NCBI GenBank assembly: GCA_017533485.1
Contig: JAFXIC010000046.1
Location: forward strand, 216-64,215
Direction of reading: 5' to 3'
DNA from: Oscillospiraceae bacterium
GTDB lineage: Bacteria; Bacillota; Clostridia; Oscillospirales; Ruminococcaceae
DNA: 64,000 bases
Below are positions 29,594-63,536 of the stretch, piece by piece. Each line of letters starts with the position of its first letter. Positions within the stretch are counted from its first letter, which is position 1. The position numbers and the translations under genes were made by a program. The notes beneath the pieces were generated by a model that worked only from the letters and a program-made list of their open reading frames with translations, was not told where the DNA came from and ran no database searches.

Positions 29594-30496
29594 TTATCGC
29601 ATGAGAATACAGTTTGCGTAGTATTCATATGTCTCCGGCTGCGGAAATCTGGAGATGTACCACTCGGTAATCATCGGACCGAACATTGCGCCGAGATATA
29701 ATCCCATACAAAGATACGGCCCAAACGCAAATTTCGATTCTCCGGTCTTTTTCTTTAGGATTGATCCGAATACTCCGGCAAAAAGAATGCCGATGAATGC
29801 GGACGGAACCATCGCTTTCCACCCAAGCAGCAATCCCGAAAATGCCATCAGGATTGTATCACCAAGTTCCACTCCGCGGACATCTTCACCGGTTTTCTTT
29901 TTGGCGTAGGGTCTTGTCAATTCACCAATCAGGAAAAACGGAAGCCCGATGCTGGCGGCTCCGATCAGCCGATCCGCTATCGTCAGTTCCGATGCAAAAT
30001 AGCTCGGAATCACAAGCAGCACGATTACCAGCAATACGCGCATATCCATTTCCTGTGTGTCCCAGTCCATGAACCCCACGACCACAAGTACAGATGTGAA
30101 AATGCACATGATGAACATATTCGCGGTCAGCCCGAAAATCAGGAAATCTGCAACGTACAATAGTCCGTTCAGCGTTTCTACGATCGGATAGCGCGGCGAA
30201 ATCTTTTCCCCGCAGCTATGGCATTTTCCTTTCAGAAACAGCCAGCTGAATACCGGAATCAGATCTATGATCCGGATCTTCGTTCCGCAGGTCATGCAGT
30301 GTGAGGCGCGCTTCGTCAGCGACTCCCCAATCGGAAGCCGTATGATGACGACATTGAGGAAGCTACCGATACAGATTCCGTAGAGAAATACGACAGGAAT
30401 CGCAAATAAGAAAAATGTCGGTTCCATGTACTTCCAGTCGTCGAAGCCTGCCGGTGCTGCGGGAATGCTCGCAGCAAGCAATAATTTTTGGTACAT
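29594..30496 (-). CDS. pilD: prepilin peptidase / N-methyltransferase (A24 family)
   Basis: Zn-finger CMTCGTKI...CHSCGEKISPRYPIVE; polytopic membrane protein; RBS AAGGAGG; 300 aa. Confidence 0.88.
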   Translation of the reverse strand: MYQKLLLAASIPAAPAGFDDWKYMEPTFFLFAIPVVFLYGICIGSFLNVVIIRLPIGESLTKRASHCMTCGTKIRIIDLIPVFSWLFLKGKCHSCGEKISPRYPIVETLNGLLYVADFLIFGLTANMFIMCIFTSVLVVVGFMDWDTQEMDMRVLLVIVLLVIPSYFASELTIADRLIGAASIGLPFFLIGELTRPYAKKKTGEDVRGVELGDTILMAFSGLLLGWKAMVPSAFIGILFAGVFGSILKKKTGESKFAFGPYLCMGLYLGAMFGPMITEWYISRFPQPETYEYYANCILMR

Positions 30497-34425: not shown

Positions 34426-34965
34426 ATGATGAAGAAAAAGGGTTTTACTTTAATTGAGCTGATCGTTGTCATTGCGATCATTGGCGTACTTGCTGCAATG
34501 CTTGTACCTGCCATGATGGGATATATTTCGAAATCTAAGATTATGAATAGCAACGGAGCTGCCAATTCTGTTTTAAAGGGCGCAAACATTGCAATTGTTG
34601 AGCTTTCTAACCGCGATTATAATTATTCGCTTCTGGATGGCAATATTACAGTGGACGCTGCGGATATTGTCGCGTGTAAGGACGTTATAATGTCCTCCGT
34701 TTCCAGAGATTCTACGAACGTGAATGAGCTGAGATCCATTCTCTATGCCAGTATTTATCGGTATTTTACTGATGTCGAGGAGCTTGATGAGGTTTCCTTC
34801 CAAATTAGCAATGGAGAATGTGTTGGTGTCGGTGTATTGAAGGGAAGATACCCCGGTTCCGCGCCGATTGCTATCGGCATTGAAGATTTTCAGCAGGTCG
34901 AAGAAACCGGTACTTGGGATTCGGATGTTGCGCTCGATTACGCAACAGGCACTACCACTCCGTAA
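34426..34965 (+). CDS. second type IV pilin paralog
   Basis: MMKKKG|FTLIELIVVIAIIGVLAAMLVPAMMGY. The first ~37 aa are near-identical to PilA1; the C-terminal globular part is unrelated by eye; 179 aa. Confidence 0.88.
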   Translation: MMKKKGFTLIELIVVIAIIGVLAAMLVPAMMGYISKSKIMNSNGAANSVLKGANIAIVELSNRDYNYSLLDGNITVDAADIVACKDVIMSSVSRDSTNVNELRSILYASIYRYFTDVEELDEVSFQISNGECVGVGVLKGRYPGSAPIAIGIEDFQQVEETGTWDSDVALDYATGTTTP

Positions 34966-40449: not shown

Positions 40450-40476
40450 GAAACTTGTATGTTCCGGTACAAGAAA
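40450..40476 (+). promoter_or_regulatory. 27-nt conserved element, copy A (GAAACTTGTAT-N8-ACAAGAAA)
   Basis: GAAACTTGTATGTTCCGGTACAAGAAA, 58 nt upstream of ATG 40534. The second copy lies at 50436-50462. Confidence 0.5.
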
Positions 40477-40533
40477 TCACAGGTTTTTACCTATGAATGG
40501 AGGGCGATTTGAAATGAAAGGAGATTTTGCTGC

Positions 40534-40998
40534 ATGAATCTTGAGATTCGGATTGCGGAGAAGACGGCGGCTTTACAGGGGAGTCCGCAGATTATCTGCG
40601 GCAACAGCGACTATACGCTGACCTTTTTCTTCGACAGCGAGTGGGATGCATATCCCGTAAAAACCGCACGATTTGTGTATTTCCAAAACGGAATCGCAGT
40701 GCATCAGGATGTTCTCTTCGAGGGTGATACGGTGACGGTACCGGTGCTGCATGGCGTCTATGAGGTTGCAGTTGGCGTATATGCCGGCGATATCCATACG
40801 ACCACACCGGCCCGTATCAGCTGTGTACCGTCAATTACCTGCGGCAGCTCGCCGCATGACGCACCGTCACAGGATGTGTATGATCAGCTGATGGCATACT
40901 TAGCGAGCATCCGCAACGGCAATTTCGTGGATGCACAGCGTCTTGCCGCTGTCTGCACAGGGAAGACGGTAATTTCAATTGCACAACAGGAGGAATGA
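40534..40998 (+). CDS. hypothetical beta-rich protein, possibly phage baseplate/fibre accessory (BppU-N-like)
   Basis: RBS AAAGGAG. Pattern ...VTVPVLHGVYEVAVGVYAGDIHTTTPARISCVPSI resembles Ig-like phage tail accessory domains; weak. Confidence 0.3.
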   Translation: MNLEIRIAEKTAALQGSPQIICGNSDYTLTFFFDSEWDAYPVKTARFVYFQNGIAVHQDVLFEGDTVTVPVLHGVYEVAVGVYAGDIHTTTPARISCVPSITCGSSPHDAPSQDVYDQLMAYLASIRNGNFVDAQRLAAVCTGKTVISIAQQEE

Positions 40999-41001
40999 GA
41001 G

Positions 41002-41661
41002 ATGGCAATGACAAAGGAATATATCGGATATCATTTTGACGCGGACTTTCTGGCGTGGCTTCGCAGTCATCTTATCCCCGAATATGTGGACAGCATCGAG
41101 GTCAGCGCGGACGGTACTTCCTATCAGATGCTGCGCGGCGGCAATCAGATTGCGAAAATTACAGCGACGGATTGGACGCTCTATCCCACATCCCAAACGA
41201 CGCCAAGCCAGTCGGCAATGGCAAATGTCGGCAGTCAGGTTTATGGGTATGCCGGTCAGAATGCGATCGCAATCTGTTACCGCGGTTATGGCAGTGCGGC
41301 GAAAAACAATCAGAGTCTTGTGCTTTTTACGCATGATAACCATGGCGGGGCTGTCGTACTTATGGCGATGCGGCTGTCCGAGAATTCTACCGGCGCGACA
41401 TTGTTCTCTCAGACAGCTACGACATACCTCATGCGCTTACAGACTTCGGAAATCAATACCGTCACATCGCTTCAATTGAAGTATAATTCCGGTTCTGTGA
41501 GCTGTCTTTGTCCGTTTGTGCTCAATACCGAGGAGCCGGAAATTTTTTATACGCCCGATGTCTTCTGGTGTCCGGTCTATCAGCATTCTGCGATCGGTAC
41601 GCTGCTGATTGACGGCGCACGGTATTTTACGTTCGGACCATGGATGGTGAAGGACGCGTAA
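41002..41661 (+). CDS. hypothetical protein (partner of 40534 gene)
   Basis: Starts 4 nt after the previous stop; 219 aa; no recognisable motif. Confidence 0.4.
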   Translation: MAMTKEYIGYHFDADFLAWLRSHLIPEYVDSIEVSADGTSYQMLRGGNQIAKITATDWTLYPTSQTTPSQSAMANVGSQVYGYAGQNAIAICYRGYGSAAKNNQSLVLFTHDNHGGAVVLMAMRLSENSTGATLFSQTATTYLMRLQTSEINTVTSLQLKYNSGSVSCLCPFVLNTEEPEIFYTPDVFWCPVYQHSAIGTLLIDGARYFTFGPWMVKDA

Positions 41662-50009: not shown

Positions 50010-50121
50010 TACACCGACAAGCGCTGACACGCTTTGGCAAAATCTCTCAGGAAATTCCGGTTGATTTTCTGGAGCGATGGGTGTATACTACTATCATCAG
50101 CCTTTTCATTTGATTTCTGCC

Positions 50122-50150
50122 TTGTTCGACCAAGTCCGATATGATATAAT
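50122..50150 (+). promoter_or_regulatory. sigma-A promoter with extended -10
   Basis: TTGTTC (50122-50127), 17-nt spacer, TGA-TATAAT (50145-50150). Confidence 0.55.
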
Positions 50151-50156
50151 CCAACA

Positions 50157-50362
50157 CTTCATATCAGGGAATCTTGGCTCTGCGCGTGGATTGCAGACCT
50201 CCCGCTTTCTCCGGTTCCGGAGCGATGCGGACGAAGGGAGCGTGAAAGGCGCAGGCGGATACCCACCTGCTTTGTGCGGGTTTTATGCGTCGGACGACGG
50301 CAAGGCGGAGCTTGAATATTTACGCGGATGCGGCAACTCGTTTTGCTGCATCCGCTTTTTTG
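50157..50362 (+). ncRNA. ~200-nt promoter-to-terminator unit (candidate sRNA or first leader segment of the phage-like operon)
   Basis: No RBS-preceded ORF. Internal helices include CTCCC..GGGAG (50209-50250 region) and GCAGG..CCTGC. Ends at terminator 50324-50362. Confidence 0.3.
50324..50362 (+). terminator. intrinsic terminator T1
   Basis: 13-bp arms 50324-50336 / 50343-50355 (one G-U pair) followed by T6. Confidence 0.8.
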
Positions 50363-50435
50363 TCATTCCGACGAATCCGGATACAAGTTATAGAGAACAT
50401 CTGTTCTATTCTCTAAATCCAAAAAAGAATCTGTT

Positions 50436-50462
50436 GAAACTTGTATCCCGGAATACAAGAAA
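50436..50462 (+). promoter_or_regulatory. 27-nt conserved element, copy B
   Basis: GAAACTTGTATCCCGGAATACAAGAAA; 20 of 27 positions match copy A at 40450-40476, with identical length and flanks. An extra inverted half-site TCCGGATACAAGTT sits at 50376-50389. Confidence 0.5.
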
Positions 50463-50504
50463 ACGCCGCTTTTGCCATATGGGTGAAGGCGGCGTTTCTT
50501 CTCC
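50462..50504 (+). terminator. terminator-like hairpin T2 in the terS leader
   Basis: AACGCCGCT / GGCGGCGTT arms followed by TTCTTCTCC; about 70 nt upstream of the terS ATG. Confidence 0.5.
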
Positions 50505-50572
50505 GCGGAGTGCCGCCGGGATTCCCCCCCACACACATAGATTCACAAAATGTTCGAAAGGTGGTTTTCAGA

Positions 50573-51127
50573 ATGACGGATACTGCGCGTTCCGAAACAC
50601 GGATTGCAGCACTGCGGCGGAAGAATTTCTGTCGCTACTACCTGCTGCTCGGCAACCCGACCGAAGCGGCGCTCCAAGCCGGTTTTGCACCGGAGAAGGC
50701 TGCGGAGGAAGCCCTCGCGCTCCTCCAGAATCACAGCTGTCGTGCGTACCTCGCAAAACTTGCCGCACAGCCCGCACTTCCGATTCAGACGCTTGTTCTT
50801 TCGGGGCTGAGCCGGCTTGCGTTCGGTTCGGCAAAGGATGCCGTAAAACTTGTGTTCTCGGAAGAAATGCCCTCGGACGAAATGCTTTCGCGTCTCGACC
50901 TTTTTCAGGTTGCTGAGCTGAAGCGCGTCAAGGGCGGCGGCGTTGAAATAAAACTCTTCGACCGCCAGAAAGCGCTCGAACGGCTGCTGGAATGTGCGAT
51001 GTCGGCAGATTCTTCTGCTGCCGCAAATGCGCTCCTTTCCGCCCTGAGCATTCCGCAGGAGGAGGCGAATGCACTTGACGATGATGAAGCCGACGCGCTT
51101 CTCCCAAAAACAACGGCGCGTTCTTAA
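50573..51127 (+). CDS. phage terminase small subunit (XtmA/Terminase_2-like)
   Basis: ATG 50573 after GAAAGGTGG. RYYLLLGNPTEAALQAGFAPEKAAEEALALLQN is an HTH-like motif typical of this family; overlaps terL. Confidence 0.7.
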   Translation: MTDTARSETRIAALRRKNFCRYYLLLGNPTEAALQAGFAPEKAAEEALALLQNHSCRAYLAKLAAQPALPIQTLVLSGLSRLAFGSAKDAVKLVFSEEMPSDEMLSRLDLFQVAELKRVKGGGVEIKLFDRQKALERLLECAMSADSSAAANALLSALSIPQEEANALDDDEADALLPKTTARS

Positions 51128-52346
51128 CTGGTGGATGCAGCCCGAAACAATGCACTATGACGCGATTATCTGTGACGGTGCGATTCGTTCGGGAAAAACC
51201 ACTGCGCTTGCGCTCGGATTTGTCATCTGGGGCTGTACGAGATTTGACCGCCAGAGCTTTGCGCTTTGCGGAAAAACCGTCACCTCGCTCCGCCGCAATC
51301 TTGTGACACCCCTCATCGCACAACTCTCTCTCCTTGGCTTTCAGGTCGAGGAAAAGGTCAGCAAGGCTTATCTCGATATCTCCTTCGGCAACCATCGGAA
51401 TCGGTTTTACTGTTTCGGCGGTAAGGACGAGGGCTCGGCTGCCCTGATTCAGGGGATTACGCTGGCTGGAGTTCTGATGGATGAGGTGGCGCTGATGCCG
51501 AAGTCCTTCGTCGAACAAGCACTCGCTCGTTGTTCTGTACCGCGCTCAAAGATGTGGTTTTCCTGTAACCCCGATAAGCCGTCCCATTGGTTTTATCGGG
51601 AATGGATTCTGATGGCGAAGCAGAAAAACGCCCTCTATCTGCATTTCACCATGGAAGACAATGCAGCGTTGACACCTGAAATCCGTGCGCGGTATGAACG
51701 GATGTATGACGGCGCATTTTATGACCGCTATGTGAAGGGGCTATGGGTGGCATCACAGGGGCTTGTCTATCCGATGTTCTCGCCGAGTAAGCATATCGCA
51801 GAACCGCCTGCACCCTGCGAACGGTATGTGATTTCCTGCGACTATGGTACAATGAACCCGACATCCTTCGGACTCTGGGGACTCAGCGAAGGCTGCTGGT
51901 ACCGGTTTGCGGAATCCTATTATGACGCTCGGAAAGCAGGTGTGCCGAAAACCGACGAGGAGCATTATCTTGCCCTCGAAGCACTCGCAAAAGACTATCC
52001 GATTGAACAGATTGTGATCGACCCTTCGGCTGCAAGCTTTATCGCCTGTATCCGAAAACACGGACGCTATGTGGTGGTACCGGCAAAGAATGATGTGCTC
52101 GCCGGAATCCATCGCGTTGCAGACGCGATTCGTGCGGAGAAAATCCGCATCGGTGCGGCGTGTCAGGATGCGCTGCGTGAATTCTCCCTCTATGCATGGG
52201 ATGCGCACGCGGGCTCGGACGCGCCTGTGAAGGAACATGACCACGCGATGGACGATATCCGCTATTTCGTGAGTACGGTTCTGGATTCTGAGGAGCGCAC
52301 GGGCTTTTATGTCACCTCGCTCTCCCGCACCGATGCAGCAAACTGA
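51069..52346 (+). CDS. phage terminase large subunit (PBSX/XtmB family)
   Basis: RBS AGGAGGAGG. Walker A ICDGAIRSGKTTAL; Walker B-like GVLMDEV; C-terminal nuclease-type acidic motifs (ISCDYG, HDHAMDDIRY). Confidence 0.85.
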   Translation: MHLTMMKPTRFSQKQRRVLNWWMQPETMHYDAIICDGAIRSGKTTALALGFVIWGCTRFDRQSFALCGKTVTSLRRNLVTPLIAQLSLLGFQVEEKVSKAYLDISFGNHRNRFYCFGGKDEGSAALIQGITLAGVLMDEVALMPKSFVEQALARCSVPRSKMWFSCNPDKPSHWFYREWILMAKQKNALYLHFTMEDNAALTPEIRARYERMYDGAFYDRYVKGLWVASQGLVYPMFSPSKHIAEPPAPCERYVISCDYGTMNPTSFGLWGLSEGCWYRFAESYYDARKAGVPKTDEEHYLALEALAKDYPIEQIVIDPSAASFIACIRKHGRYVVVPAKNDVLAGIHRVADAIRAEKIRIGAACQDALREFSLYAWDAHAGSDAPVKEHDHAMDDIRYFVSTVLDSEERTGFYVTSLSRTDAAN

Positions 52347-52362
52347 AAGGAGGTTTTTGATT

Positions 52363-53559
52363 TTGCGATTCCCCATTCCTCCCAAGAAACAGCGTGCAGC
52401 AGACTTACCGTCGGTTCCGATGCTGCTGGCGCCCAAACGCACCGCGCCAACGCATACGGCAGAAAATCTGCCGCTGCGGACGCCGCCGCCTCCGTCACCT
52501 GCGGAGTGGAAGCTCTATGACGCGCTGCGGTATGCGGTGCCGGTCGTGGACGCTGCACTCCATAAGATTGTGCGGCTCTGCGGCGGATTCCGGCTGACGG
52601 CTCAGACCCCCGAAGCACAGGCGGTTCTGGATGCGTTTTCGGAGAATGTTCCGGTGAATGCGGCAGGCTGTTCCCTCCAGTCTTTTGCGGATCAGATGCT
52701 CGATGCACTGCTGACCTACGGAAATGCAGTCGGTGAGCTGATTTGCGACGCACAGAGCGGTATGCCGCAGGGACTTGTGACTGCGCATCCGTCCATGCTC
52801 GAAATTTGTCCCGATACGCCGGTTTCCTGTCGGTATTATCTCCGCGGCACGGATGAAGCAAAGCGTCAGCCGCTTGCACATCCCGAACGAATTCTGTTCG
52901 CGGCACTTTCTCCTCCGCCCTCCGGCATTTATGGTGTATCGGTATTGCGCGGTCTTCCGGCACTTTCCAAAATCCTGCTTCGGATTTACGAATGTGTCGG
53001 TCAGAACTATGACCGCGCCGGAAATGTCCGCTATGCGGTTACCTATCACCCCGATGCGAATGCCGCAGCGTTCGCACAGTCCCACGCAAAGGAAATCAGT
53101 GATGCCTGGAAACATGGCATTCAGGCGGCTTCCTATGGCGAGGTTCAGGACTTTGTTGCGGTCGGCGATATCGACATCAAGGTGATTGGTGCCGAAAACC
53201 AGCTCTTCGATACGAATGTGCCGGTGCGCCAGCTCCTGGAGCAGATCGTCTCGAAACTCTCTATTCCGCCGTTCCTGCTGGGATTTTCGTGGTCCACAAC
53301 AGAACGGATGTCTACCCAGCAGGCAGATATTCTCACTTCCGAGCTGGAATATTTCCGCAGACTCCTTTCCCCGATTCTCCGGAAAATCGGAAATGCCGTT
53401 CTCCATAGCGCCGGCTTTTCCGAATCGGTTCAGGTCGCTTGGGACAGCATCAATCTTCAGGATGAAACGGAGCTTGCGGAAGCACGCCTGAAAAATGCGC
53501 AGGCAAAGCAAATCGAACAGCAGCTGGATGCGTCCGGCTGTCAGTCCCCCGAATCATGA
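52363..53559 (+). CDS. phage portal protein (probable)
   Basis: Position immediately after terL; ~400 aa. Start uncertain: TTG 52363 lies 9 nt after GAAAGGAGG, and ATG 52333/52309 are alternatives. Confidence 0.6.
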   Translation: MRFPIPPKKQRAADLPSVPMLLAPKRTAPTHTAENLPLRTPPPPSPAEWKLYDALRYAVPVVDAALHKIVRLCGGFRLTAQTPEAQAVLDAFSENVPVNAAGCSLQSFADQMLDALLTYGNAVGELICDAQSGMPQGLVTAHPSMLEICPDTPVSCRYYLRGTDEAKRQPLAHPERILFAALSPPPSGIYGVSVLRGLPALSKILLRIYECVGQNYDRAGNVRYAVTYHPDANAAAFAQSHAKEISDAWKHGIQAASYGEVQDFVAVGDIDIKVIGAENQLFDTNVPVRQLLEQIVSKLSIPPFLLGFSWSTTERMSTQQADILTSELEYFRRLLSPILRKIGNAVLHSAGFSESVQVAWDSINLQDETELAEARLKNAQAKQIEQQLDASGCQSPES

Positions 53560-53575
53560 AAGGAGCAGTAGGATT

Positions 53576-54544
53576 ATGTACGATTCTGTAAAACTCGAAA
53601 AAGGTATGTACCATCTCGCCAATCAGTCTTTTCTGGATGCGCTGGAGCACGCCGACCCGTCCGAACAGTATCTGGGTACGCCGCTTGCATCGCTGGACGC
53701 GTTCGAGCGTCAGCTCAAGCGTTTCGATATCCACCTCAGCGGTGAACACTGCGATAAGGTCGAGAAATTCTTCTCCACCACCGAGAGCGCAGTCCTTTTC
53801 CCTGAATTCGTCCGCAGAGCCGTGAAGCAGGGTATGGAGGAATCCATTCTGCCGGAGCTTTGTGCGGCGGTCACGAAAACCAATGGCACTTCCTATAAGG
53901 GCTTTGCCATCGACGAGGCGGACGGCGCATATTCCGAGACGGTCGAACAGGGTGAGTCGCTGAAAATCACTGCGCTGACCGAGGCGGAGACTGCCATCGT
54001 CCTCGAAAAGTATGGCAGAGTCATTACCGCATCCTATGAGATCGTCCGTCAGCAGCGTATTGATGTGTTCGCGGTTATGCTGCGCGCCATCGGTCATAAG
54101 CTTGCGGGGGCGATCGCCGGTGCGGCACTCGCGAAGCTCGGTACTGCGCTGACGCCCCTTACCCTCAGCGGCAGTACCCTCGCATATGCAGATCTTGCGG
54201 CACTGTACGGCGAGTTCTCTGACTATGATATGACCACCGTGATCGCCTCTCCGAAGAATGTTGCCGCAATCCTCGCGATGGATGAGATGGCTGACCATAC
54301 AACCGATGCGGACGGTACGATCCGTCTTCCGTTCGGCGCAAAGCTCCTCAAGGATTCTTCGCTTTCCGATACAACCATTATCGGTATCGCAAAGGATTTC
54401 GCACTCGAATGCGTAACCGGTTCGGATGTGCTCCTCGAAACCGACCAGCTGATTAACTGTCAGCTCGATCGGATCGCAGTATCTGTGCGTGTGGGCTTCC
54501 AGCCGCTGATGGAGGGTGCCGCAGCTTCGATCGACTGGACATAA
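53576..54544 (+). CDS. HK97-fold major capsid protein (probable)
   Basis: ATG 53576 after AAAGGAG; 322 aa. Pattern LEKYGRVITASYEIVRQQRIDVFAVMLRAIGHKLA and the C-terminal beta-rich region resemble Phage_capsid family members. Followed by a G/C-rich hairpin. Confidence 0.55.
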   Translation: MYDSVKLEKGMYHLANQSFLDALEHADPSEQYLGTPLASLDAFERQLKRFDIHLSGEHCDKVEKFFSTTESAVLFPEFVRRAVKQGMEESILPELCAAVTKTNGTSYKGFAIDEADGAYSETVEQGESLKITALTEAETAIVLEKYGRVITASYEIVRQQRIDVFAVMLRAIGHKLAGAIAGAALAKLGTALTPLTLSGSTLAYADLAALYGEFSDYDMTTVIASPKNVAAILAMDEMADHTTDADGTIRLPFGAKLLKDSSLSDTTIIGIAKDFALECVTGSDVLLETDQLINCQLDRIAVSVRVGFQPLMEGAAASIDWT

Positions 54545-54653: not shown

Positions 54654-55595
54654 ATGATGCAAAAGAATGATTCCGAGATGCTTGCGGCACTGAATCACTT
54701 CACGCGCCGTGCGCATACGCTCGAAGAGGTCTATCTCTTTGACCTGATTCTCTGTGACAATGAAATTGACCGTGACGGGGATTGTTTCTCCGAACAGGCA
54801 CTCAAAGCGATGCAGAAGCTGTTTGTCGGCGTCACGGGGATCTTCGACCATAACTTAAAATCCGGCAATCAGACTGCCCGTATTTTCCGCACAGAGGTTC
54901 TGACGGATGCTTCGCGCCGGACAAAGACCGGTCAGCCCTATCAGTATCTGAAGGCAAATGCCTATATGGTGCGGACGAACGCGAATGCCGACCTCATCCG
55001 CGAGATTGATGCCGGAATCAAAAAGGAGGCCAGTATCTCCTGTGCCGCGTCCGAACAGATCTGTTCGATTTGCGGTACGAACCGGCTGAAACAGCACTGT
55101 GGGCATATCAAGGGCCGCTCGTATCAGGGTGCGCTCTGCTATACCACACTCGACGGGATTTCCGATGCATACGAATGGAGCTTCGTCGCGGTACCGGCAC
55201 AAAAATATGCCGGCGTTACGAAAACACTCGGCGGAAGCACAGCCGCACAGCCCGAAACCAAGATGCTGGAACGTGCGCTGGAGGCTGCGAGCGGTACACT
55301 CGATAAGCTGACGGACGCGCTGAGAAAGGATGTCATCCGACTCTGTTACCGCGGCGGAGAAACTGCCTGTGCGAAGGCGCTGGCGGATTCCACGATTCAT
55401 ATGGACGCGGAAGCCCTCTTAAAGCTGCGCCAGAGTCTTCTGATCGGCGCACAGGCACAGTCAGAGCGTGAAGCCGCCGCCGCAAAGGCGAACTCTCAGC
55501 TCTATCCGCAGAAAAATGCTGCCTCCGCATCCGAACCGCTGCCTGCAATGGACGAATTCCGGATGCACCGCAAAAAGGAAGGGGACGCGAGATGA
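54654..55595 (+). CDS. XkdF-like prohead protease with C-terminal scaffold-like coiled coil (probable)
   Basis: CDNEIDRDGDCFSEQALKAMQKLF...GIFDHN resembles the XkdF/S78-type protease N-terminus. The C-terminal ~120 aa are Ala/Glu/Leu-rich. Confidence 0.5.
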   Translation: MMQKNDSEMLAALNHFTRRAHTLEEVYLFDLILCDNEIDRDGDCFSEQALKAMQKLFVGVTGIFDHNLKSGNQTARIFRTEVLTDASRRTKTGQPYQYLKANAYMVRTNANADLIREIDAGIKKEASISCAASEQICSICGTNRLKQHCGHIKGRSYQGALCYTTLDGISDAYEWSFVAVPAQKYAGVTKTLGGSTAAQPETKMLERALEAASGTLDKLTDALRKDVIRLCYRGGETACAKALADSTIHMDAEALLKLRQSLLIGAQAQSEREAAAAKANSQLYPQKNAASASEPLPAMDEFRMHRKKEGDAR

Positions 55596-55945
55596 ATACA
55601 GCACTGGCAATGCGATTGTTTGTGTTATTCGCCGGTCTTTCCGATGGTACCGAGTATCAGGCGCTCCTGGATGCGGCGGCAGAGGAGGTAAGCGGCGAGC
55701 TTTTGCCGGAGGCGGATGCGAATGACCGCCGCCTCAGCTATTATTGTGCCGCAATCGCCCATCTGCGCTATGTCCAGATGCTTGCCGCACGCAGCGAGCT
55801 GTCCCATACCTATGCCGGTACGGTTGCAAAACAAAAGGACGCAACCGTACCCTGTGGATTTGCGGAGCGGCTGGTCTGTCAGTACCGCAATGCGGCGGCT
55901 GATCTCTTAAAAGACCGCTGCTTTGTCTTTACGGGCATCGCCTGA
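55592..55945 (+). CDS. head-tail connector (gp6-like) candidate
   Basis: 117 aa; ATGA overlap with the previous gene; size and position fit, motif recognition is weak. Confidence 0.4.
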   Translation: MNTALAMRLFVLFAGLSDGTEYQALLDAAAEEVSGELLPEADANDRRLSYYCAAIAHLRYVQMLAARSELSHTYAGTVAKQKDATVPCGFAERLVCQYRNAAADLLKDRCFVFTGIA

Positions 55946-55991
55946 ATCCACGGACGAGAAATTATCTGAACAAAGGGGGGGACAGCCGATT

Positions 55992-56426
55992 ATGGCATAT
56001 TACGCAACATTTCTGAATCAGATCGTGACCATGCTCCGGGAACGCGGTGTGGACGCAGACCTCGAATATCCGCGCAAGTCACTTTCTGTCCATGCATCCG
56101 GACGCTACCTGACCATCGGGCTGGAGTCCGCGGAATATCAGCCCGCACTCGCATACCGGGATGGGCTTGCATTCCCCGTGACACTGCATCTGCGCCTGCG
56201 GATGCACCAGAATCCGACGAAGAATGTACAGGCACTTTCTGCACTTTATGAAGCGGTTGTGCTGCCGGCATTCGTGGATGCGGGGTATGATCTGCGGAGC
56301 ATGAAGCTCCATAGCCCCGAATATGACAGGTCGCTGGATCGAATGGTGATGCGGGCGGACTGTATGCTGCATGGCTATGTGGTGAAAACGGCATCAGCGG
56401 CGGAAACGGAGCGTGAGGAAGTATGA
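55992..56426 (+). CDS. phage head-completion / hypothetical protein
   Basis: ATG 55992 after AAGGGGGGG; 144 aa; call based on synteny only. Confidence 0.4.
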   Translation: MAYYATFLNQIVTMLRERGVDADLEYPRKSLSVHASGRYLTIGLESAEYQPALAYRDGLAFPVTLHLRLRMHQNPTKNVQALSALYEAVVLPAFVDAGYDLRSMKLHSPEYDRSLDRMVMRADCMLHGYVVKTASAAETEREEV

Positions 56427-56809
56427 CGAATCTGATGACAGCGGAAGATAAGCTGCGGCTGAAGCTGGGGACGCTGGAGCTGACGGCGGACAGCTACCGT
56501 ATGGAGCTGCACCGTCCGACACGCCGACAGACGCTTGTGGACGGACGCTTCCGGGAAACGATGCTGGATGTCGAACCATGCGTGCTGCGGATTGAGAGCC
56601 GTGTGATTTCCGCTGATGCTGCCGCGCTGAAAGCGGCGATCCGGACGGCAATCCATGAGAATACGGTCTTTTCGTTTTCCTTCGACAGAATGCGCTTTAC
56701 GGAGATGACGATCCGGGATATTCTTTTCTGCCGGTCGGAAAACCAACAGTATATGACCTTGACGCTGACGCTCGGCGGAACATTCTCCGGAGAGGAGGAT
56801 GATGTGTGA
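56423..56809 (+). CDS. phage-associated hypothetical protein
   Basis: ATGA overlap at both ends; 128 aa. Confidence 0.4.
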   Translation: MTNLMTAEDKLRLKLGTLELTADSYRMELHRPTRRQTLVDGRFRETMLDVEPCVLRIESRVISADAAALKAAIRTAIHENTVFSFSFDRMRFTEMTIRDILFCRSENQQYMTLTLTLGGTFSGEEDDV

Positions 56810-57741
56810 TGCCGACAGCAGTCCTGACGCTTTATGCGGCAGACGGAAGTTTCGTGACGCAAACAGATTGTGCGGCATTTTCTCTTTTAAAGGAGCGGTA
56901 TCTGCCGTATGATACATTCCATGCGGTGTATTGTCTGACGGAGGAACGTCTGCCGCAGCCGCCGGTGCGTGCGGTCTTTACACTGGATGGTGTGAAGCTG
57001 CACGACGGGATTGTACGCAGCGTAAAAGCGGAACGCCGGAATCATCTCACACAGCTGACGCTCACCTCGCGCGGTTATACGGAATCGCTGATGCAGAATC
57101 AGATGGTACCGGGGCTGTATACGGATGTCACACTCGATTCACTGATGACAACCTACGCGCTGCCGCATATCACATACGAAAGCGGATTGTCCGCGTCAAA
57201 TTATATCTATGTCAAAGCAAATACGGCGATGTGGGATGCACTGTCCGCGTTTTGCTATAAGTATAACCGTTCTCTGCCGTATGTGACGCGCTGTAATCAT
57301 CTGCGGCTGAGCGCGAAACCGGAGGATGCGGCAATCCTTCTGCCTGCGGAAGGCTTGCTGCGGTATTCCGAGGACGGGGACGCTTCAACCATCATCAGCC
57401 GTATCGACATGGCAGATATCGACGGAACCTACGGGCAGTTCACCTGTACCAACGAAAAAGCTGCGGAACGTCAGATTGTTCGTGTGAAACAGATGCTGTT
57501 TGACCGCCAGTTTCTCTATCAGCCCGAGGACGCACTGCGTTACCGGATCGCGTACAGCAATCGGAAGCTGATCGGAAAAACAGTTTCCTACTGCGGCTAC
57601 TGCGGCGAGGATATCGAGGACATGGTGGAGCTTTCGGGCGTGCTTCGCGGTCATGTCAGCCGGATACTGCTTCGGGGAAACGAAAACGGGCTCGAAACAA
57701 CGGATACACTCTATTTCGACAGCTTCTGCAATGTCGGCTGA
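56806..57741 (+). CDS. phage-associated protein, possibly XkdQ/gpD-like hub
   Basis: 311 aa. Pattern FTLDGVKLHDGIVRSV......LTLTSRGYTESL loosely resembles XkdQ/late-control-D proteins; weak. Confidence 0.35.
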   Translation: MMPTAVLTLYAADGSFVTQTDCAAFSLLKERYLPYDTFHAVYCLTEERLPQPPVRAVFTLDGVKLHDGIVRSVKAERRNHLTQLTLTSRGYTESLMQNQMVPGLYTDVTLDSLMTTYALPHITYESGLSASNYIYVKANTAMWDALSAFCYKYNRSLPYVTRCNHLRLSAKPEDAAILLPAEGLLRYSEDGDASTIISRIDMADIDGTYGQFTCTNEKAAERQIVRVKQMLFDRQFLYQPEDALRYRIAYSNRKLIGKTVSYCGYCGEDIEDMVELSGVLRGHVSRILLRGNENGLETTDTLYFDSFCNVG

Positions 57742-57754
57742 GGGTACGGAATCC

Positions 57755-57804
57755 ATCTGCCTTTTCCGGGAACACATACGCGGAGAAGGCAGATTGTTTT
57801 TTTT
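57755..57804 (+). terminator. intrinsic terminator closing the phage-like module
   Basis: ATCTGCCTT (57755-57763) / AAGGCAGAT (57786-57794) followed by TGTTTTTTTT. Confidence 0.8.
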
Positions 57805-57834
57805 CGGAAAAATATGGAGAATTTGAAAATTTGC

Positions 57835-63476: not shown

Positions 63477-63505
63477 TTGACATCTTTGCAAAAACGTGGT
63501 ATTCT
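63477..63505 (+). promoter_or_regulatory. sigma-A promoter of hrcA operon
   Basis: TTGACA (63477-63482), 17-nt spacer, TGG-TATTCT (63500-63505). Confidence 0.7.
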
Positions 63506-63509
63506 ATGT

Positions 63510-63536
63510 TTAGCACTCAAAGAGATTGAGTGCTAG
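63510..63536 (+). promoter_or_regulatory. CIRCE operator (HrcA binding site)
   Basis: TTAGCACTC-N9-GAGTGCTAG; matches the CIRCE consensus TTAGCACTC-N9-GAGTGCTAA at 17 of 18 positions. Confidence 0.92.

Follow-up and report, generated by a model that had tools for sequence, protein, structure and literature searches.

A shared inverted-repeat module most likely joins the head and tail-fibre loci of a split phage-like element in Ruminococcus-type gut bacteria

We analyzed a stretch of 64,000 nt from an Oscillospiraceae bacterium (contig JAFXIC010000046.1, positions 216 to 64,215 of the forward strand; hereafter the window) in which a 27-nt element precedes two separate sets of phage-like genes, a tail-fibre pair beginning with the gene o154 and a head and packaging operon running from terS to p311. 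The original prediction held that the element joins these two loci into one putative regulon with the organization of a gene transfer agent (GTA), and the comparative evidence presented here supports that claim. Judging from aligned sequences, the element is most likely part of a promoter common to the operons of a split, domesticated phage-like element, whose regulon it would define. As to how it works, we consider it probable that the 27-nt element is the operator half of an activator-dependent promoter of about 57 bp.

Two copies of the element in the window

A mismatch search recovered the two copies that had been noticed by eye, on the same strand and identical at 20 of 27 positions, with no third copy in the window. 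The copies and the -10-like boxes that follow them are:

40450..40476, + strand: element copy 1, GAAACTTGTATGTTCCGGTACAAGAAA; inverted repeat CTTGTA-N8-TACAAG with the core TTGTA..TACAA at 40455-40472, flanked by GAAAC and GAAA
40492..40503, + strand: -10-like box of copy 1, TATGAATGGAGG, 18 nt after the repeat; spacing and box as at copy 2 and at 12 foreign sites
50436..50462, + strand: element copy 2, GAAACTTGTATCCCGGAATACAAGAAA; inverted repeat CTTGTAT-N6-ATACAAG with the core at 50441-50458
50478..50489, + strand: -10-like box of copy 2, TATGGGTGAAGG, 18 nt after the repeat

The copies differ in their central 8 nt. Copy 1 is separated by 57 nt from the ATG at 40534, and copy 2 by 110 nt from the terS ATG at 50573. 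Searching both strands for GAAACTTGTAT-N8-ACAAGAAA with up to three mismatches gave two matches in the window against 0.01 expected; the chance level was set with dinucleotide-preserving shuffles, none of which (0 of 100) held two or more matches. The relaxed core TTGYA-N8-TRCAA was found at the same two places alone, against an expectation of 0.21. The likeness extends past the 27 nt first described, since 18 of the next 30 positions on the 3' side are identical without gaps (manual count), and both boxes start exactly 18 nt past the last base of the inverted repeat. From this layout, transcription would be expected to start near 40503-40505 at copy 1, leaving a 5' untranslated region of about 30 nt, and near 50489-50491 at copy 2. 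A leader peptide starting from the ATG inside the box was considered and rejected by eye, as no ribosome-binding site lies ahead of it.

The two phage-like sets are truly separated, as had been claimed: the 9 kb between them hold ordinary host genes, among them GltD-like, NuoF/NuoE-like, dockerin, PHP-domain and DUF1292 proteins and the 6S RNA gene. The CCGG-containing core that had been pointed out in the element is not conserved in relatives and lies outside the motif.

The bipartite module in other genomes

In related genomes, cited here by our own locus numbers (L001 and so on), the element is one part of a longer module, (c/g)TTGYAC-N6-GTRCAA(g/c)-N18-TAtgGGTGAAGG, that heads head, fibre and lysis operons. 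The exact window-type motif gave few matches in 80 related head loci, indicating that what is conserved is a degenerate dyad and no exact string; aligned upstream regions were therefore used instead. In these alignments, an inverted repeat stands at the orthologous place upstream of terS in nearly every relative outside the Ruminococcus flavefaciens clade. The fibre pair is preceded by the element in the same way, with GAAACTTGCATCTGCTTGTGCAAGAAA upstream of the o154 homolog in L083 and TGATGCACGAAAACGTACAAG in L085. In the metagenome-assembled genome (MAG) JAZLJA01, the head locus (L003) and the fibre locus (L083) alike carry CTTGCA..TGCAAR, just as the two loci of the window share CTTGTA..TACAAG. 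The element is thus found in the same position before the orthologous head operon and fibre pair elsewhere, as the original prediction had led one to look for.

A scan of metagenomes with the 27-nt pattern returned 78 matches, mostly chance matches from unrelated habitats, and none of them stood beside o154 or terS. Its useful product was a set of gut contigs in which the element lies on the other strand, in the same layout, before a gene of about 240 amino acids. This gene encodes an Amidase_3 cell-wall hydrolase and is followed by a Phage_holin_4_1 gene in every genome examined, so that the two form a stand-alone lysis cassette amid host genes. The module is present at amidase homologs of 85%, 69% and 58% identity alike; it was found upstream of amidase-holin cassettes in L114/118, L115, L154/161/169 and L187-191. 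Representative sites are:

L187, lysis: CTTGCAC-GCAAAC-GTACAAG, 18-nt spacer, box TATGGGTAGAGG
L189, lysis: CTTGTAC-GCCAAT-GTACAAG, 18-nt spacer, box TGTTAGTGAAGG
L190, lysis: GTTGCAC-TGTTTC-GTACAAT, 18-nt spacer, box TAAGGGTGAAGG

The L190 amidase box and the copy 2 box of the window differ in a single position. Together with the terS and o154 sites, those of L187, L189 and L190 indicate that genes of complementary functions, for head, fibre and lysis, share one upstream module. The spacing from repeat to box was 18 nt at both window copies, at L001, L002, L003, L016, L083 and L085 and at all lysis loci.

The core occurred 40 times in the 1.65 Mb scanned, and 26 of these matches lay exactly at the positions upstream of terS, o154 or the amidase gene. 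We also trained a weight matrix on 12 sites from other genomes only, with the window sites left out. Applied to the window, it placed copy 2 first (34.6 bits) and copy 1 second (21.8 bits); the next-best scores, about 5 bits, came from these two sites in reverse orientation, and shuffled sequence reached 12.3 at most. This ranking shows that the window has no third site and that both sites point to their genes. The matrix found no other kind of locus in all of the DNA collected. Scattered copies of the element, or its absence from orthologous clusters, were looked for and did not occur. No locus held a second copy of its own motif within its 20 kb, which places the partner loci elsewhere in those genomes.

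Several variations were seen around these sites. The lysis cassettes are divergent from an amino-acid permease gene, and several have a GC-rich 5' hairpin after the module; the genes called in L187-L191 are Amidase_3 and Phage_holin_4_1, plus a small open reading frame (ORF) where the contig continues. In the loci that we term group B, a further dyad, TGTGCAG-N4-CTGCACA, precedes the main repeat by about 45 nt. The leader of the R. flavefaciens clade (L025-L080), about 60-170 nt upstream of terS, consists of the box TTGTGCA-N3-TATACAAA, then TTCAAYG-N6-CRTTGAA, then CTTATGAACGG; the last folds into a small hairpin (ATGAACG..CGTTCAT) immediately ahead of the ribosome-binding site. A search of IMG/VR with the R. 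flavefaciens-type pattern gave four chance matches inside coding regions and was uninformative.

A two-fold symmetric site

The original prediction offered several mechanisms for the element: a hairpin, a binding site for a dimeric regulator, or an extracytoplasmic function (ECF)-type promoter with GAAAC as its -35. Across the 31 sites that were aligned, T, G and A never varied in either half-site, and the spacing between the arms was always N8. The one variable pair (Y/R) was T-A in 9 sites, C-G in 7, C-A in 7 and T-G in 8; half of the sites are therefore mismatched at this pair, and A.C (7) is as common as G.U (8). The flanking pair switched symmetrically, C..G or G..C, in 24 of the 31 sites, and the outer T..A was swapped symmetrically in three lineages. 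Because the arms vary independently while the flanks vary symmetrically, the element behaves like a site for protein binding, with two-fold symmetry and a single degenerate position, and unlike a conserved RNA stem. Such behavior favors the dimeric regulator among the mechanisms first proposed.

The hairpin fared less well. Folded as RNA, the element gave only -6.8 and -6.2 kcal/mol (z about -2), the window copies lack a U-tract, and no Rfam family matched it; neither the stable, covarying stem nor the U-tract of a structured RNA or terminator was thus found. The weak stem and the frequency of A.C at the variable pair both disfavor this claim. The ECF-type reading is likewise disfavored, since the GAAAC flank is confined to close relatives of the window: GAAAC was seen in the window, L001 and L083 and GAATC in L003, and other lineages have AAAAG, TTTTC, TTTAC or GTTTG. 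No GAAC or GAAAC -35 is conserved at a fixed distance, as an ECF or phage sigma factor would call for. The element also differs from a LexA site (CGAAC-N4-GTTCG) in both half-site and spacing.

Proposed mechanism

By eye and by consensus scan, no canonical sigma-A promoter was found around either copy. An activator is most likely because the module has no usable -35 and a poor -10. We propose that the module comprises an inverted repeat of 18-20 bp with a GTA-N8-TAC core, an 18-nt spacer and the weak -10-like box, and that it heads dispersed operons, namely the terS-to-p311 operon and the fibre pair in the window and the amidase-holin cassette in related genomes. A dimeric transcription factor would bind the repeat. 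The site is two-fold symmetric, of the 5-N6-5 form. In the window, as at 12 other sites, its centre precedes the box by 28.5 bp, which would place it at about -41 from a start expected 5-10 nt past the box; in group B head operons the distance is 32.5 bp. The right arm would sit at the place of the -35 without resembling one, and the bound factor would activate RNA polymerase in the class II manner of CRP/FNR or NtcA. All particle parts and the lysis genes would thereby be switched on together, serving the regulon of a split GTA-like element.

Searches for the regulator itself gave negative results: there is no regulator gene beside either window locus, no CRP/FNR-family protein among the window ORFs scanned, and no recurrent neighboring regulator in the flank ORF clusters of relatives, which hold host genes such as FeoA and AzlC/AzlD. 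We tentatively suggest that the module points to a dedicated master regulator, that of an undescribed GTA which is widespread in Ruminococcus and related Oscillospiraceae and is perhaps the one behind the 4.6-kb packaging of R. callidus.

Alternative explanations

Two further features near copy 2 bear on how the module is read:

50395..50406, + strand: GAACATCTGTTC, a palindrome resembling the Gram-positive LexA (Cheo) box, 30 nt ahead of copy 2; membership in the system uncertain
50461..50502, + strand: strong hairpin (50461-50497) followed by UUUCUUCU; -25.2 kcal/mol, z = -6.2; encloses the -10-like box of copy 2 and has a U-rich tail

Several observations weigh against an activator-dependent promoter shared by all these operons. 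The box is a poor sigma-A -10 whose final T is missing in most sites, and conservation is highest in the TGA(A/G)GG that follows, which may mean that an alternative sigma factor reads the box. With 22-23 nt between repeat and box, the head operons of group B depart from what is usual in strict class II promoters, and at the head loci of the R. flavefaciens clade the positional counterpart is a different dyad (the TTCAAYG-type repeat described above). Head and fibre loci could be compared in two genomes only, and with a degenerate Y/R pair the agreement within each could be chance (about 1/16 each). For the genomes with lysis cassettes, no link to a head operon of this type was found. The stable hairpin encloses the copy 2 box, so that if it is active as RNA, transcription must start upstream of the box; the promoter model may then need revision.

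Another explanation keeps the same regulon but has a repressor, such as an SOS-cleaved CI- or LexA-like protein, bound to the repeat as its operator over the -35 region, with induction following from loss of the repressor. We hold this to be unlikely, although it has several points in its favor. The repeat overlaps the would-be -35, 17-18 nt upstream of the box; SOS-cleavable repressors are common in elements of phage origin; the LexA-like box upstream of copy 2 has counterparts in L012 and L016 at about the same position, and degenerate ones in L001 and part of the R. flavefaciens loci; and the o154 homolog of L081 is under a CI/Cro-type switch. However, the LexA-like box has no statistical support in the window (2 occurrences, 1.19 expected) and is missing at copy 1, and the L081 switch uses other operators without the element. 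None of the roughly 100 element-bearing loci has a linked repressor gene, and with poor sigma-A elements both in the -35 region (ACAAGA or TACAAG) and in the box, the bare promoter left by an absent repressor should be weak. The module could also be a promoter for an alternative sigma factor of phage or ECF type, in which part of the repeat is the -35, TAtgGGTGAAGG is the -10 and the dyad is incidental, and to this we assign a low probability. The fixed distance of 17-18 nt from the right arm (ACAAGn) to the box fits sigma-type spacing, and conservation continues past the hexamer, in contrast to sigma-A sites. A sigma-like late factor also serves PBSX-like elements, and the o154-bearing phage L088 encodes a weak Sigma70_r2 protein. 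Yet the left arm is as conserved as the right across the 31 sites and the flanks change symmetrically, neither of which a sigma -35 needs; in addition, the GAAAC flank does not reach past the close relatives of the window, and the longer group B spacing breaks the fixed distance.

A mechanism at the level of RNA appears very improbable. The repeat would here be a hairpin in a leader transcribed from an upstream promoter, either a nut/boxB-like antiterminator site or part of an attenuator, acting with the downstream hairpin and U-run. Such a downstream hairpin does follow copy 2, with a compensatory change in L001 (ACACCGC..GCGGTGT), a T-run follows the repeat in group B and some R. flavefaciens loci, and antitermination controls the GTAs of Caulobacter and Bartonella (PMC11150451, bioRxiv 10.1101/2024.11.20.624540). 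Against this stand the weak stem of the element and its mismatches at the variable pair, the arm spacing fixed at N8 where an RNA loop would be free to vary in length, and the lack of a terminator after the repeat at copy 1 or the lysis loci, of an Rfam match and of a convincing upstream promoter. That the two copies are a chance likeness or a functionless generic repeat is scarcely credible. There are just two copies in the window, with different central 8 nt, but the very low expectation, the positional conservation across species and the recovery of both sites by a matrix trained on foreign genomes effectively refute it. Among the rivals, the order of likelihood is the repressor operator, then the alternative sigma factor, then the RNA-level mechanism. 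The activator-dependent promoter remains the explanation that we favor.

A GTA-like system across genomes

Relatives of the portal protein at 52-83% identity were found in at least 80 species-level genomes of Ruminococcus and Oscillospiraceae. The same nine-gene order was seen in related loci wherever the contig reaches far enough, and the flanks, made up of host genes, vary by clade. No integrase or repressor gene lay within 10 kb of the head operon in about 60 loci. When the window was compared with its two nearest relatives, all head-operon genes were intact, without stop codons, and the ratio of nonsynonymous to synonymous substitution rates (dN/dS) was 0.05-0.35; synonymous sites are saturated in this comparison (dS >1).

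A portal search of IMG/VR returned fragments of up to 10 kb only, and no full phage genome with this module or with a linked late regulator was found there. The 'viral' contigs concerned (L090-L108, up to 10 kb) look like pieces of the chromosomal element and not like phage genomes, and such elements probably inflate viral catalogues.

These observations agree with the marks by which a GTA is recognized: phage-like structural and packaging genes lie in the chromosome without integration, replication or lysogeny modules, the element is kept across the host lineage under purifying selection, and its genes are split over loci that the shared module may co-regulate, standing as it does at head and fibre in the window and JAZLJA01 and at lysis cassettes in other genomes. 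The gene content and its conservation suggest that the system is most likely a domesticated, GTA-like phage remnant of Ruminococcus-type gut bacteria. For the remaining mark, particles that would deliver quasi-random host fragments too short to encode the element, the 4.6-kb packaging reported for R. callidus offers at most indirect support (PMC12946183).

The head and packaging operon behind copy 2

The operon behind copy 2 consists of nine ORFs in 7.2 kb and contains no integrase, repressor, replication, tape-measure or lysis gene. Its features are:

50573..51127, + strand: terS, small terminase subunit (PF03592 at 1.6e-15; phrog_51)
51069..52346, + strand: terL, large terminase subunit (PF03237, PF04466)
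52309..53559, + strand: portal protein (phrog_30703 at 1.7e-118)
53495..54544, + strand: major head protein-like (phrog_3922 at 2e-60; PF25209 Phage_capsid_4)
54654..55595, + strand: conserved phage protein, role unassigned (phrog_16951); present in all related loci
55592-55945, 55923-56426, 56423-56809 and 56806-57741, + strand: four genes without a family; gene order kept in relatives, intact, dN/dS 0.06-0.35
57755..57805, + strand: hairpin and T-run, terminator-like, closing the operon; read from sequence, host genes beyond

The four family-less genes are presumed to encode connector or tail parts. Their proteins, together with p313, had no match in Pfam, PHROGs, NCBIfam or PDB sequences, and a single-sequence AlphaFold2 (AF2) model of p311 was unusable, with a predicted local distance difference test (pLDDT) score of 32.6.

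Directly 5' of the operon lies the gene for 6S (SsrS) RNA at 50111-50315 on the + strand (Rfam RF00013, 68.8 bits, full length), with its terminator hairpin at 50324-50355. Because of this gene, the long ORF at 50077-50916 is considered spurious. The stronger hairpin that encloses the copy 2 box was found in the window and L001 only, and likewise only these two share the upstream stretch with DUF1292 and, in the window, the 6S RNA gene. The hairpin and U-rich tail at 50461-50502 may be a terminator that insulates the head operon from read-through of the 6S RNA gene.

On the 3' side, the operon is followed by host genes including those for AspRS, a TPR protein and hrcA. The hrcA gene is preceded by a controlling inverted repeat of chaperone expression (CIRCE) element, TTAGCACTC-N9-GAGTGCTAG, at 63510-63536 (region 63477-63536, + strand), behind a TTGACA promoter, which represents ordinary heat-shock control.

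The tail-fibre pair behind copy 1

The locus behind copy 1 holds two genes:

40534..40998, + strand: o154, BppU-like N-terminal anchor domain of tail-fibre/baseplate proteins (AF2 model, pLDDT 84.6)
41002..41661, + strand: o219, fast-evolving partner of o154; ends conserved, middle variable

The top PDB match of the o154 model was 4v96, the TP901-1 baseplate (E 2e-4), in a chain that we take, from its length, to be BppU. Against BFVD, the model matched the N-termini of tail-fibre, BppU-domain, baseplate and tailspike proteins with E values down to 2e-15. All 111 homologs of o154 are unannotated, and one of them carries PF24243 Phage_tail_C. In the prophage L089, an o154 homolog and its partner lie between the tail genes and the lysis genes (endolysin).

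For o219, a single near-identical homolog was found, and its positional counterparts elsewhere are 25-28% identical, compared to 56-69% for the adjoining o154 proteins. Divergence of the partner beside a conserved o154 is the pattern expected of a receptor-binding protein, making o219 a candidate for this function. The pair forms an isolated two-gene unit amid housekeeping genes, at a different place in each genome.

An o154-type fibre pair also occurs in the MAG CAYMOJ01 (L081, 9440-10000), where it lies behind a CI/Cro-like switch with a gene for an HTH (helix-turn-helix) and Peptidase_S24 protein. That switch has a perfect TTGACA-N17-TATAAT promoter and three ACGCT-N4-AGCGT dyads, and the TTGYAC element is absent. 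Since this fibre pair uses an unrelated switch, the element is no general trait of the o154 gene family.

Two other observations concern the surroundings of o154 and its homologs. In L088 (8657-12135), a true phage, an o154 homolog and three small genes lie between terL and the portal gene, an unusual spot for a gene of tail-fibre type. Genes of type IV pilus/competence type are found a few kb upstream of the fibre pair in both the window and JAZLJA01, as a matter of proximity only; those of the window encode a prepilin peptidase (29594-30496, - strand) and a pilin-like N_methyl protein (34426-34965, + strand), and those of L083 (1-4355) encode T2SSE ATPases and N_methyl pilin-like proteins.

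Comparison with known systems and significance

By analogy, the closest functional parallel to this system is the Rhodobacter capsulatus GTA (RcGTA), and the closest by host and layout is the Faecalibacterium prausnitzii GTA (FpGTA). In RcGTA, the regulator GafA binds the promoters of the structural cluster, the lysis cassette and its own gene (PMC6363796). The likeness lies in one regulator or cis-acting module at separate loci, here the head, fibre and lysis operons that stand amid host genes. The differences are that RcGTA belongs to Alphaproteobacteria and the present element to Bacillota, that the structural genes are unrelated, and that no GafA-like gene was seen here. The motif is also listed as different, but no GafA motif for comparison was found in the text of PMC6363796.

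GTA-like packaging of host DNA has recently been reported to be common in gut Ruminococcaceae and Oscillospiraceae, and only the element of Faecalibacterium has been assigned to genes (PMC12946183). FpGTA has two operons, FpGTA I with ten ORFs in 10.5 kb and FpGTA II with fibre and lysis genes in 5.5 kb, for which no promoter or regulator is reported; R. callidus packages fragments of 4.6 kb from a locus that is unidentified in that 2026 report (PMC12946183). Compared by layout and genes alone, the present element shares with FpGTA the family and habitat, the split layout, a head operon without integrase or replication genes and the separation of fibre, receptor-binding and lysis genes from it, and both are near-ubiquitous within a genus. 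In contrast to FpGTA, the fibre pair and the lysis cassette are here separate units, and the head operon has nine ORFs in 7.2 kb.

The module resembles NtcA and class II CRP/FNR promoters in form only, with no membership implied: GTA-N8-TAC (TGTAC-N6-GTACA) replaces the -35, 21 nt upstream of a TA-rich box. NtcA-type promoters, as Herrero et al. are said to have described in 2001, have GTA-N8-TAC about 22 nt upstream of a -10 of the form TAN3T. NtcA is, however, cyanobacterial, the box in our module usually lacks the final T, and the spacing is 4 nt longer in one clade. A likeness may also be drawn to the boxB sites of nutL and nutR in lambdoid phages, where two short dyads with lineage-specific sequence precede two operons of one phage-derived genome. 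BoxB is an RNA hairpin downstream of the promoter, whereas the present dyad shows none of the pairing constraint of an RNA and stands at a set distance ahead of a -10-like box. Neither the motif nor a dyad-plus-box module shared by head, fibre and lysis operons in Bacillota was found in the literature searched.

The motif provides a handle for listing all loci of the system in a genome by computation, a bait for the regulator (DNA pull-down or DNA affinity purification sequencing, DAP-seq) and a simple reporter for the triggers of particle production and lysis in rumen and gut fibre degraders such as R. flavefaciens. The system would be a second, independent example outside the Alphaproteobacteria of scattered domesticated phage genes that are kept co-ordinated. 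If the proposal is true, the motif alone would enumerate the loci for head, fibre and lysis in any genome, possibly together with the gene of the regulator. Gram-positive gut anaerobes would then have evolved, independently of the Alphaproteobacteria, a GafA-like solution in which one activator drives many scattered loci, here with a CRP/FNR-like dimer that could make the release of particles depend on a metabolic or stress signal.

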